A DNA stretch of 64,000 bases from a virus (Duplodnaviria > Heunggongvirae > Uroviricota > Caudoviricetes). A program made the position numbers and the translations under genes. Location: the IMG/VR virus record IMGVR_UViG_3300032665_000003; one strand, written 5' to 3'. Every line of letters starts with the position of its first letter. Within the stretch, counting starts at the first letter, position 1. The notes below the pieces were generated by a model that was given only the letters and a program-made list of their open reading frames with translations, did not search any database and was not told the DNA's origin. This document shows positions 27,629-32,505 of this stretch, piece by piece.

Positions 27629-28825
27629 ATGGTAGACACAAAATTAGATCATTGTTCCTTCTGTGGAACTCATAAAGACCAAGTAACAAAGCTTATCGTT
27701 AGTGAAGACGTAGCGATTTGTAGCGACTGTATAGACTTGTGCAATCAACTTATTGCATCTGGAAAATCCTCCTCAAGTATTAAACCTGATCAAACAGAGA
27801 TTGATGCATATAGCATTAAGGAATATCTTGACCAGCATGTCATAGGTCAGGATGAAGCTAAGAAGGTTTTGTCGGTAGCGATTTCTAATCATTACAAGCG
27901 AATTAATAATCCACCTAAGGATTTAGAAATTCAAAAGGGAAACGTGCTACTGATTGGACCAACTGGTTCTGGTAAGACCCTTTTAGCTAAAACAGTAGCA
28001 AAATATCTGAACGTTCCTTTCGTGATTGCAGATGCTACTAACTTGACTGAGGCAGGGTACGTAGGCGAAGATGCCGAAACCATGATTGCAATGCTATTAG
28101 CTCTTGCAGATAACGATGTGAGCAAAGCAGAACGCGGGATAGTCTTTATTGACGAGATTGATAAAATCTCTCGCAAGAGTGAGAGTGCTAGCATTACCCG
28201 TGATGTTAGCGGAGAGGGCGTTCAACAAGCACTTTTGAAGTTGGTAGAGGGAACTAAATGCCGGGTAAGCCCGATTGGCAAACGCAAGCATCCACAAGGT
28301 GAAATGATTGAAGTGGATACCAAAAATATTCTGTTTATTGCAGGTGGAGCCTTTGTCGGAATAGAAAACATAATCAAAAGTAGAACACAGGGATCGTCTA
28401 TCGGGTTCGGCCCGGTGATGAAACCAAAAAATGACGCTGTTTGTTTATCATCTGTGAGTCCTGATGATTTAACAAAGTTTGGTATGATTCCAGAGTTTAT
28501 CGGAAGATTTACTACTACTATAACCTTGCAGGATCTAACTTTAGATCAACTGGTTGCAGTGTTGACTACCATCAAAAACAGCTTTATTGAGCAATATCAA
28601 TATCTGTTCGAACTTGATGGAATTGAACTCTCATTTACCGAAGATGCTATCGTGAAGACTGCGCAAAATTGTATAGATTTACATACGGGTGCTAGAGGCC
28701 TACACACGGAAATAGAACGTGTGCTAATGCAACATATGTTCCACATTCATAAGTATAAGGAATGCGGTATTAAAACTATAACAATCGATGTAGATCAAAT
28801 AACCAACCCTACACCACTAGTATAA
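27629..28825 (+). CDS. clpX: ATP-dependent Clp protease ATP-binding subunit ClpX
   Basis: CSFC...CSDC Zn domain, GPTGSGKT, IDEIDK, RDVSGEGVQQALLK, TGARGL. Confidence 0.97.
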   Translation: MVDTKLDHCSFCGTHKDQVTKLIVSEDVAICSDCIDLCNQLIASGKSSSSIKPDQTEIDAYSIKEYLDQHVIGQDEAKKVLSVAISNHYKRINNPPKDLEIQKGNVLLIGPTGSGKTLLAKTVAKYLNVPFVIADATNLTEAGYVGEDAETMIAMLLALADNDVSKAERGIVFIDEIDKISRKSESASITRDVSGEGVQQALLKLVEGTKCRVSPIGKRKHPQGEMIEVDTKNILFIAGGAFVGIENIIKSRTQGSSIGFGPVMKPKNDAVCLSSVSPDDLTKFGMIPEFIGRFTTTITLQDLTLDQLVAVLTTIKNSFIEQYQYLFELDGIELSFTEDAIVKTAQNCIDLHTGARGLHTEIERVLMQHMFHIHKYKECGIKTITIDVDQITNPTPLV

Positions 28826-28870
28826 TACCCAAAATACTAGAATTTTTACGAATTTATAGTAGTATAAATA

Positions 28871-28933
28871 CTATTGTAGATGCTCAATGAGGTCTACAAT
28901 AATAGTCTTGCTTAATAAAGGAGATAAAACATG
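28871..28933 (+). promoter_or_regulatory. ROSE-like RNA thermometer in hsp20 leader, after late promoter TATAAATA (28863-28870)
   Basis: 5' hairpin ATTGTAGA/TCTACAAT; 3' hairpin TCTTGCTT-AATA-AAGGAGA pairs the SD with a bulged G. Confidence 0.7.
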
Positions 28934-29380
28934 ACTAATGAACTAACCCTTCGTGCCTTCGACATTCCATCAATTCATAAATTTGCAGTAGGTTTTGACA
29001 GCGTTTTTAATGAATTGAGTAGAGCACATTTTCTGCAATCTAATGTCAATTATCCACCATTTAATGTAGTACAACATTCTGACGATAGATTCAGCATCGA
29101 ACTTGCTGTGGCCGGATTTAACGAAGGAGATATCGATGTTACTTTGGAAAAAAACGTTCTAACTATTCAAGGTAAACAAGCAGTAGAAGACAATCTAAAT
29201 GGACCTGTGTATCTACATCGCGGTATTTCGGCCCGCAGTTTTACTCGTTCGTTCACTTTAGCAGAACATGTTGAGGTTGAAGGAGCTGACGTTAATAACG
29301 GCATTCTAACTATTGATCTTGAGCGCAAGGTTCCTGAGGAACAAAAACCCAAAACCATTGCGGTTTCATATAAAAAGTAA
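28931..29380 (+). CDS. hsp20: Small heat-shock protein Hsp20 (IbpA-like)
   Basis: NYPPFNV, IELAVAGF, YLHRGISARSF, NGILTIDLER. Confidence 0.96.
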   Translation: MTNELTLRAFDIPSIHKFAVGFDSVFNELSRAHFLQSNVNYPPFNVVQHSDDRFSIELAVAGFNEGDIDVTLEKNVLTIQGKQAVEDNLNGPVYLHRGISARSFTRSFTLAEHVEVEGADVNNGILTIDLERKVPEEQKPKTIAVSYKK

Positions 29381-29420
29381 TATAAATAATAGTGCTTGCA
29401 GCCGATGTGGCTGCAAGCAC
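29381..29420 (+). promoter_or_regulatory. Late promoter plus perfect 12-bp 5' hairpin before clpS
   Basis: TATAAATA then GTGCTTGCAGCC-GATGT-GGCTGCAAGCAC. Confidence 0.6.
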
Positions 29421-29439: not shown

Positions 29440-29748
29440 ATGGCAAATGCAGAAATCAAAAGCAAAATTAAGCCTAACGTAGCTCTTAAGGAGCCGCCAC
29501 TATACAAGATTATCTACATCAATGATAATCATACTTCTATGGAATTCGTGATTAGTTCTCTCGTTGAGTACTTTAATTACAATCCAGACACTGCATCAGT
29601 CATTACTGTTGATATTCATGAGCAAGGTAGCGCGGTGGTTGCTGTTCTGCCATATGAAATCGCCGAACAGAAAGGAATTGAAGTCACGCTTGATGCCCGT
29701 GCACAAGGATATCCTCTACAAGTGAAGGTAGAAGCAGAATCAAACTAA
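29440..29748 (+). CDS. clpS: ClpS N-end-rule adaptor
   Basis: PPLYKIIYINDNHTSMEFVI, VHEQGSAVV, YEIAEQK, YPLQV. Confidence 0.93.
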   Translation: MANAEIKSKIKPNVALKEPPLYKIIYINDNHTSMEFVISSLVEYFNYNPDTASVITVDIHEQGSAVVAVLPYEIAEQKGIEVTLDARAQGYPLQVKVEAESN

Positions 29749-31914: not shown

Positions 31915-32505
31915 ATGAGTCTCGTTCCAATCGTACTTGAACAAACCAGCCGTGGCGAAAGAAGTTATGACATTTATTCGCGCCTTCTCAGAGACAGAGT
32001 GATTCTTTTGGAGGGTGAAGTTCATGATCAAATGGCTAACCTTATCGTAGCGCAATTGCTCTACCTAGAATCCGAAGATTCTTCTGCTGACATTTCGCTC
32101 TATATAAACTCGCCAGGTGGCTCCGTTACTGCTGGCATGGCGATCTACGATGCTATTCAGTTCATCAAGCCTGATGTTTCCACTATCGTGATGGGACAGG
32201 CCTGCTCGATGGGATCATTGCTTGCTCAGGCAGGTGCAGCTGGAAAGCGATTTATGCTTCCGAACGCTCGTCACATGATTCACCAACCATCTGGTGGCGC
32301 CCGCGGAATGCAAAGTGATATCGAGATTTCTTACAAGGAGATCACCTATCTCAAGAAGCGTTTGACTGAAATCTACGTCGAACATAACTCTGCCGGAAAG
32401 ACGTATGCAGATTTTGAGCGTGACATGGACCGCGATAAGTTTATGTCTGCCCAAGAAGCTTTGGAATACGGGCTTATCGATAAGATCGTCACTAAGCGCG
32501 ACTAG
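31915..32505 (+). CDS. clpP: ATP-dependent Clp protease proteolytic subunit ClpP
   Basis: [36 protein letters not shown]. Confidence 0.98.

Follow-up and report, generated by a model that had tools for sequence, protein, structure and literature searches.

The small heat-shock gene hsp20 belongs to the core genes both of T4-like cyanophages (PMC3037559) and of large freshwater phages (PMC7674155), and is regarded there as a gene of unclear role. One copy of this gene, carried by an uncultured virus whose record comprises 258,859 bp and is estimated to be 73% complete, lies directly behind a short leader that a sequence-only reading had interpreted as a ROSE-like RNA thermometer on a late transcript. 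This locus raises the question of whether the leader truly belongs to the ROSE family, how a phage came to carry it and what it is likely to do for the expression of the chaperone. The window analysed here is a stretch of 64,000 nucleotides forming one part of that record, and it was compared with related viral loci, cultured phages and bacterial genomes.

Genomic setting and structure of the leader

The virus is a giant (jumbo) freshwater phage of the T4-like type. Its genome contains gp32- and UvsX-like genes and encodes a gp55-type late sigma factor (T4 gp55 match, E 1e-5; PHROG 12791, 'sigma factor for late transcription', 6e-75). The features of the locus are as follows.

27629-28825, + strand: clpX (Pfam zf-C4_ClpX and AAA_2), the upstream neighbour, whose end lies 38 nt 5' of TATAAATA
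28863-28870, + strand: TATAAATA, the T4-type late promoter -10 motif (sequence; alignments A1 and A2, see below)
28873-28900, + strand: hairpin I (RNAfold, RNAalifold, covariation)
28903-28907, + strand: linker segment UAGUC, complementary to GACUA at 28933-28937
28905-28925, + strand: hairpin II, the putative thermosensing helix (RNAfold, motif conservation, cmscan alignment to ROSE_3)
28931-29380, + strand: hsp20, an ibpA-family small heat-shock protein of 149 aa (Pfam HSP20, 3.7e-19; PHROG 432 Hsp20, 6e-44)
29440-29748, + strand: clpS (Pfam ClpS, 1.5e-23), the downstream neighbour
31915-32505: clpP (Pfam CLP_protease, 4.6e-81)

The order clpX-hsp20-clpS is kept in at least 70 of 75 related loci. 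Together with clpP and a ClpA/B-like ORF of 755 aa with a Clp_N domain, found elsewhere in the genome (G000:C1:103894-104043), these three consecutive genes form a proteostasis set. A DNA-level search of the phages in GenBank with the clpX-clpS stretch returned distant clpX similarity and nothing else.

The leader is about 55-60 nt long, lies in the 5' UTR and extends to the start codon of a gene whose product matches Pfam HSP20, as is expected of a ROSE element. The late promoter motif and the two hairpins following it were all found where the sequence-only reading had placed them. In hairpin I, an outer stem of 8 bp is formed by ATTGTAGA (28873-28880) and TCTACAAT (28893-28900), and inward of this stem lie the pair U28881-G28892, a bulged G28882, a 3-bp CUC/GAG helix and the loop AAU. 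Hairpin II consists of UCUUGCUU (28906-28913), the loop AAUA (28914-28917) and AAGGAGA (28918-28924). Here, too, the pairing described earlier between UUGCU and the Shine-Dalgarno (SD) sequence was confirmed by the sequence and by RNAfold: the anti-SD CUUGCUU (28907-28913) faces the SD AAGGAG (28918-28923) in a helix with the pairs U-A, C-G, U-A, U-G, C-G, U-A and U-A, with G28910 left unpaired between the U-G and the second C-G pair, and G28905-U28925 is added at the base. The ATG at 28931 follows this SD by about 7-8 nt.

When the leader was folded with RNAfold, hairpin I was present at every temperature, the exact hairpin II was the minimum-energy fold at 10-30 C, and the folding energy of the 74-nt leader relative to shuffled sequences gave z = -2.4. 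The two-hairpin architecture of ROSE elements, with the SD in the 3'-proximal hairpin, is thus predicted by RNAfold at 10-30 C, and it is also present in the cmscan alignment to ROSE_3. In these predictions, hairpin I corresponds to the 5' hairpin of ROSE_3, a scaffold that stays folded as the temperature changes.

With regard to transcription, TATAAATA is a -10 motif without a -35 element in a genome that encodes its own gp55-type sigma factor, the combination expected of a late promoter of this type. The TAAATA core is conserved in the relatives at a fixed distance of 4-6 nt from hairpin I. Across the genome, 57 of the 91 copies of ATAAATA are intergenic, although only 10% of the genome is non-coding, and upstream of starts the motif is found 39 times in sense and 17 times in antisense orientation; the full 8-mer TATAAATA has 13 copies in the genome and is not over-represented. 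Neither a sigma-70-like promoter nor a + strand terminator was predicted near the leader. No sigma-32 promoter (CTTGAAA/CCCCAT-type) was found before the phage hsp20, and TATAAATA occupies the position of the bacterial sigma-32 -10 element. It is therefore plausible that the hsp20 mRNA is a late transcript; by the T4 rule, transcription can reasonably be placed at about 28876, approximately 6 nt after the motif and at the foot of hairpin I.

Between the clpX stop and TATAAATA, a block of the form CC(A/T)AAATAnTAGAA-TTTTTT-(G/A)CG-nAA (28826-28862) is kept in most of the approximately 70 related loci (L002-L076), and the pattern TTTT(G/A)CG-N8-16-TAAATA has a single copy in the 259-kb genome, before hsp20. 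The block is absent from cultured marine phages. Its spacing does not fit a sigma-70 or sigma-32 promoter, a MotA box or an UP-element, and these assignments were rejected; it might serve in the control of hsp20 transcription specifically, or as an UP-like element.

Relationship to the ROSE_3 family

A comparison with the Rfam ROSE models, which the sequence-only reading had proposed as a check, gave a divided answer: the leader matches one of these models from end to end, yet at a score under its gathering threshold. With cmscan, positions 1-69 of the ROSE_3 model (RF02523), which describes the short Pseudomonas ibpA thermometer and has a gathering cut-off of 43 bits, were aligned to 28874-28936 at a score of 31.4 bits (E 3e-4 for the 1.3 kb searched). 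Full-length sub-threshold matches of 25-33 bits were obtained with cmscan in seven of 12 relatives, each time in the corresponding place before the gene, and the leader of Methylophilales phage Melnitz reached 34.1 bits. Over the relatives and the cultured phages, the ROSE_3 scores range from 22 to 34 bits and are below the cut-off in every phage tested, which explains why annotation has missed the phage copies. Likewise, because the leader match is below 43 bits, a window-wide search at gathering thresholds shows just two tRNAs, and in the window and 20 relatives Rfam at these thresholds reported tRNAs or nothing. The classical ROSE-type models (RF00435 and others) gave no cmscan match at the leader. 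A genome search with RF02523 and a loose first pass returned two matches of about 9 bits elsewhere and missed the leader site itself, so that its negative outcome is uninformative.

The bare motif Y-U-Y-GCU/N2-10/AGGAG/N4-10/AUG occurs once in the 259-kb genome, with 0.41 copies expected by chance, and is not significant alone. It rises above chance through its position on hsp20, the full-length alignment to ROSE_3 and the conservation of the leader in approximately 70 related loci. The related set comprised 75 viral loci found with the Hsp20 protein (49-71% identity), and the same leader is visible by eye at nearly all of them. A covariance model, R1, was built from 50 distinct phage leaders (alignment A1) with the two-hairpin structure imposed, and A2 is the re-aligned set; R1 finds the leader at 72 of the 75 related hsp20 loci with 44-94 bits.

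The two hairpins are conserved in different ways. In hairpin I, nine of the ten pairs show changes on both sides while 97% of the cells remain paired (A2), and the covariation score was reached by none of 500 shuffles. When the 3' partners were slid by 1-3 columns, the pairing dropped to 42-55%, and RNAalifold independently recovered this hairpin with 7-8 compensated pairs in both alignments. The loop is AAU in the window and AUGGU in most relatives; the GAUGCC...GGGUC part is kept in sequence even between phages and bacteria, and with GAUGCCGAUGGUCGGGUC, the hairpin I sequence in most phage relatives, the ROSE_3 consensus is nearly reached. In 51 of 52 distinct sequences, hairpin II has the same five core pairs and the same bulged G, the sole change being C to U, which retains a U-G pair. 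As both strands are invariant, no covariation can arise there, and RNAalifold at 37 C did not predict this hairpin in either alignment. The case for hairpin II is thus one of conservation and of analogy with known elements. The motif (C/U)UUGCU(U/A) was found in 51 of 51 distinct leaders, even though the length of the neighbouring loop varies by 3-8 nt and the linker also varies freely; the pairing of UUGCU with the SD, whose loss from homologous phage hsp20 leaders had been named as grounds for giving up the ROSE interpretation, is therefore conserved in all of them.

Selection on the leader is also evident from its divergence. From hairpin I to the AUG, the mean identity to the window is 77%, compared with 75% for codon positions 1 and 2 of hsp20 and 45% for position 3, so that this non-coding leader is under purifying selection as strong as that on the protein.

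Some variation in the placement of leaders was observed. In one related phage contig (L067:534-2923), the leader (R1, 56 bits; ROSE_3, 29.6 bits) precedes dnaK (HSP70); hsp20 comes after dnaK with overlapping stop and start codons and without a leader of its own, and clpS is next. In this contig, the leader has thus been relocated to the head of a chaperone operon. In the window, clpS has a second TATAAATA of its own (29381-29388) directly after the hsp20 stop; between this motif and the clpS SD lies a GC-rich hairpin with a perfect stem of 12 bp (29392-29420), and an anti-SD hairpin is absent. The same layout of ATAAATA, hairpin and clpS is present in a related locus (L018). Possible roles of this 5' hairpin are capping of the late clpS message, termination of the hsp20 message, or a combination of the two; its minus strand has the form of an intrinsic terminator. 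The clpS leader was rejected as a ROSE-like element, as its R1 match of 22 bits covers promoter, hairpin and start only. An intergenic site at gp32/uvsX (R1, 23 bits) was likewise discarded, being a terminator-like hairpin with an SD and without UUGCU.

To place the phage leaders relative to bacterial ones, R1 was run over 151 sampled genomes of Pseudomonadota. It returned two matches, each directly upstream of an HSP20-family (ibpA-type) gene. One of them (L090) is a genuine ROSE_3 of 66.6 bits before a Pseudomonas-type IbpA, with which the phage Hsp20 shares 41% identity along its entire length. In both bacterial leaders, the spot of TAAATA in the phage leaders is taken by a sigma-32-type promoter, in which CTTGAAA is followed after a spacer of 13-14 nt by CCCTAGAT or CCCATATC. 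These comparisons support the interpretation that the phage leader is a diverged homologue of the short two-hairpin ROSE of bacterial ibpA genes (ROSE_3). Since a model built from phages detects a bacterial ROSE_3 that has a sigma-32 promoter where the phages have TAAATA, we conclude that the gene and its leader were captured together, with replacement of the promoter. This regulatory capture kept the host gene with its post-transcriptional control, the sigma-32 promoter being exchanged for a phage late promoter.

Within a bacterial genome of about 1.9 Mb (L089:1501-2028), an ibpA leader with a sigma-32 promoter and an AU-rich CUUGCUU/AAGGAG hairpin was matched by the phage model with 36 bits and had no ROSE_3 match at E <= 0.1. 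The curated ROSE_3 model thus seems to miss AU-rich bacterial members too. Seven alphaproteobacterial Hsp20 loci, selected through peptide patterns and 41-50% identical, had no R1 or ROSE_3 match and thus do not point to a donor. In a small unrooted tree that includes few bacterial sequences, 22 phage Hsp20s are separated from nine bacterial IbpAs with 100/99 support, which fits one old capture.

The leader is also present in cultured phages. R1 matches the hsp20 leader in all six cultured Kyanoviridae tested (E 1e-10 to 3e-5), namely the Synechococcus phages S-PM2 and S-SSM5, the Prochlorococcus phage P-RSM1, the Pelagibacter phages HTVC008M and Mosig and the Methylophilales phage Melnitz, and its presence there makes direct testing possible. 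In the cyanophages, the motif takes the variant form UCGCU. From the leader, a proteobacterial host had been suggested earlier; this suggestion has to be abandoned, as the same leader stands before hsp20 in the cyanophages S-PM2, S-SSM5 and P-RSM1 and the phage Hsp20 clade is separate from the bacterial IbpAs. The leader thus travels with the phage lineage and not with the host. Unlike the other five cultured phages, S-PM2 (L093:270-400) has CCGCCCATAC instead of TAAATA before hairpin I and a sigma-70-like element, TTGCTATAAT, further upstream, indicating that the class of promoter feeding the leader varies between phages.

Taken together, the full-length sub-threshold match to ROSE_3, the reciprocal detection of a bacterial element, the invariant anti-SD with its bulged G and the covariation of hairpin I bear out the earlier proposal of a ROSE-type element.

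Proposed temperature gating and alternative explanations

In addition to the two hairpins, a third helix can be formed in this phage clade. The linker UAGUC (28903-28907) is complementary to GACUA (28933-28937), that is, to the last base of the start codon and codon 2, with a dG37 of -2.9 kcal/mol. At least five contiguous Watson-Crick pairs between the linker and the start-codon region were found in 46 of 51 distinct leaders, and the mean run of 5.2 exceeds the 3.56 +/- 0.12 of shuffled linkers. The register differs by subclade: UAGUC/GACUA in the window and wherever codon 2 is ACU, GUCAU or UGUCAU/AUGAC(A), GUCAUU/AAUGAC, GUCAUA/UAUGAC and UUGUC/GACAA. Several of these variants differ on both sides, including a synonymous switch between ACU and ACA in codon 2. 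Leaders of the GUCAU class (L054, L036, L051) fold, at minimum energy, into a single long hairpin, with the linker helix enclosing the ROSE hairpin. In the window, the linker helix and hairpin II share three bases and have similar energies (-2.9 and -3.3 kcal/mol), so that either the SD or the start codon would be covered, as alternatives. The linker/start helix was not found in the cultured marine phages, which makes it specific to this phage clade. Judged from these pairings, the start-codon helix is a feature beyond the Pseudomonas elements and is new here. The last hairpin of classical ROSE elements, as described by Nocker et al. in 2001 and Chowdhury et al. in 2006, reportedly covers the AUG too, as the third helix does in the phage.

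Our analyses suggest that the leader is probably a diverged ROSE_3 homologue that acts as a temperature-gated control of phage hsp20. In such a mechanism, transcription would begin a few nucleotides past TATAAATA, the late promoter of gp55 type, and hence at the base of hairpin I, which would serve as a stable scaffold and 5' cap. In hairpin II, CUUGCUU would lie on the SD AAGGAG around the bulged G in a helix that is marginally stable, at about -3 kcal/mol at 37 C, and in this phage clade the linker would also pair with the start-codon region. In the cold, these weak helices would hold the 30S subunit off the ribosome-binding site; warming would melt them and allow the synthesis of Hsp20. The phage would thereby control its chaperone post-transcriptionally, without the host sigma-32. 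The start of transcription, the repression of translation and the response to temperature are the inferred parts of this scheme. For the Pseudomonas elements, which are built in the same way, thermometer function has been proven by experiment (Krajewski et al. 2013, PMC3669281): translation is repressed at 25 C and released at 42 C, hairpin II melts and hairpin I stays closed, and deletion of the bulged G locks them (PMC3669281). As the phage hairpin II shares their critical features and has nearly their computed stability, temperature-gated translation is the best-supported mechanism for the phage leader, and we regard it as fairly probable.

The main rival is that the leader, although derived from ROSE, no longer senses temperature and serves as a constitutive translational throttle with a 5' stabilising hairpin, keeping Hsp20 low and steady in late infection. 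Thermodynamic predictions lend this reading some weight, as the predicted accessibility of the SD barely shifts between 10 and 50 C and in the nearest-neighbour model the dG of the 8-bp hairpin II rises to 0 only at about 57 C, far above freshwater temperatures. In the partition function, the ROSE pairs have a probability of about 0.3 and compete with the UAGUC/GACUA helix. The predicted accessibility of the SD rises only from 0.50 at 15 C to 0.58 at 42 C; however, nearest-neighbour models mis-fold the validated bacterial element too, and such a small predicted change decides nothing. That clpS shares the layout of promoter and 5' hairpin without an anti-SD also speaks for a throttle, in that 5' hairpins may be general in late mRNAs of this phage. 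On the other hand, the exact U(U/C)GCU sequence and the bulged G, both unchanged among phages whose Hsp20s share 50-70% identity, would be superfluous in a mere throttle, and it is the bulged G to which ROSE helices owe their thermolability (PMC3669281, PMC11182007). In its stability, moreover, hairpin II comes close to the proven thermometer, with a dG37 of -3.3 kcal/mol in the phage and -4.0 kcal/mol in the bacterial ROSE_3. We therefore consider a temperature-blind throttle rather unlikely, although it is the strongest of the competing explanations.

The helices might instead form the binding site of a trans-acting factor, either a small RNA or a protein from phage or host, that acts on hsp20 translation or mRNA decay irrespective of temperature. 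The hsp20-specific block conserved upstream of the promoter, with its A-tract, T-tract and T(G/A)CG, suggests extra regulation of some kind, and the GAUGCC...GGGUC of hairpin I is conserved in sequence between phages and bacteria. However, hairpin I varies in its loop and covaries freely in its stem, as expected of a structural element and not of a sequence-specific site, no candidate factor is known, and the bacterial homologues function factor-free in vitro (PMC3669281), which leaves this explanation with a very low probability. The last alternative, a chance resemblance produced by an ordinary late promoter, a clpX terminator hairpin and a strong SD after a U-rich stretch, could appeal to the single copy of the core motif against 0.41 expected and to the sub-threshold Rfam match. 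Yet hairpin I has no U-tract and the + strand terminator scan was empty, conservation of the leader, with covariation, extends over 72 of 75 loci and six of six cultured phages, its detection with bacterial ROSE_3 is reciprocal, and it is far more conserved than synonymous sites. Conservation, covariation, detection of the bacterial ROSE_3 and presence in cultured phages effectively refute this reading, and hardly any probability attaches to it.

Returning to temperature-gated control as the preferred explanation, a more elaborate version of it may be envisaged, in which the SD helix and the covarying start-codon helix act together as a double lock, a late promoter replaces sigma-32 and the upstream hsp20-specific block provides a second layer of control, the whole being a lineage-wide, host-independent regulatory RNA of T4-like phages. 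We regard this version as speculative and, on balance, doubtful. If it were true, the holdase would be made, beside the ClpX/ClpP/ClpS/ClpA-like set, only under thermal stress of late-phase folding. More generally, a conserved leader of the thermosensor type implies that Hsp20 is wanted conditionally, and this points to stress proteostasis and not to routine capsid scaffolding.

Comparison with known thermometers and late leaders

The closest counterpart of the phage leader is the Pseudomonas ibpA ROSE_3 (PMC3669281). Both precede a gene of the IbpA/Hsp20 family and have two hairpins only, with a 5' UTR of about 55 nt in the phage and 61-62 nt in Pseudomonas. They share the GAUG-C..G-GGUC core of hairpin I with its bulged G and a hairpin II in which U(U/C)GCU pairs with the SD around a bulged G, at similar stability. 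In contrast, the phage element is AU-rich and scores 31 bits against the 43-bit cut-off, U-A and G-U pairs take the place of the G-C pairs flanking the SD/anti-SD core, and the sigma-32 promoter of the bacteria (CTTGAAA-N13-CCCnAnAT) is replaced by TATAAATA. In addition, the AUG of P. putida and P. aeruginosa is unpaired by prediction and by RNase T1/S1 probing (PMC3669281), whereas the start region in the phage clade pairs with the linker. The classical ROSE elements (RF00435; rhizobial hsp genes) and the ibpA leaders of E. coli and Salmonella have the U(U/C)GCU anti-SD, the bulged G and the 3'-proximal position of the hairpin in common with the phage leader, but comprise three to four hairpins over about 70-120 nt (PMC3669281).

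Few phage RNA thermometers are recorded in the searchable literature, and none is ROSE-type. Those counted up to 2024 are lambda cIII, SPbeta blyA and one fourU case (PMC11182007); the blyA thermometer is a fourU (PMC10586365), and the third case lies on a sigma-70 gene of a gut Caudoviricetes (PMC11182007). These systems are of the same kind as that proposed here, in that a phage encodes a temperature-responsive control of translation, but they use alternative structures or fourU motifs instead of ROSE and act on other genes. Chaperone genes are not among their targets, and none of these thermometers forms a family conserved over hundreds of phages. No account of the phage hsp20 leader was retrieved when the literature on ROSE elements or RNA thermometers was searched for phages, cyanophages or hsp20.

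The phage leader also resembles those of T4 gene e (lysozyme), I-TevI and soc, in which a late TATAAATA promoter stands by a hairpin that sequesters the ribosome-binding site. In these T4 genes, the late promoter lies inside the hairpin, so that late transcripts lose the 5' arm and are translated. In the phage hsp20 leader, on the contrary, the promoter is upstream of both arms and of both hairpins, and the late transcript would therefore retain the block. Compared with all of these systems, the phage late promoter, the extra start-codon helix and the sub-threshold divergence are what is new in this ROSE-type leader.
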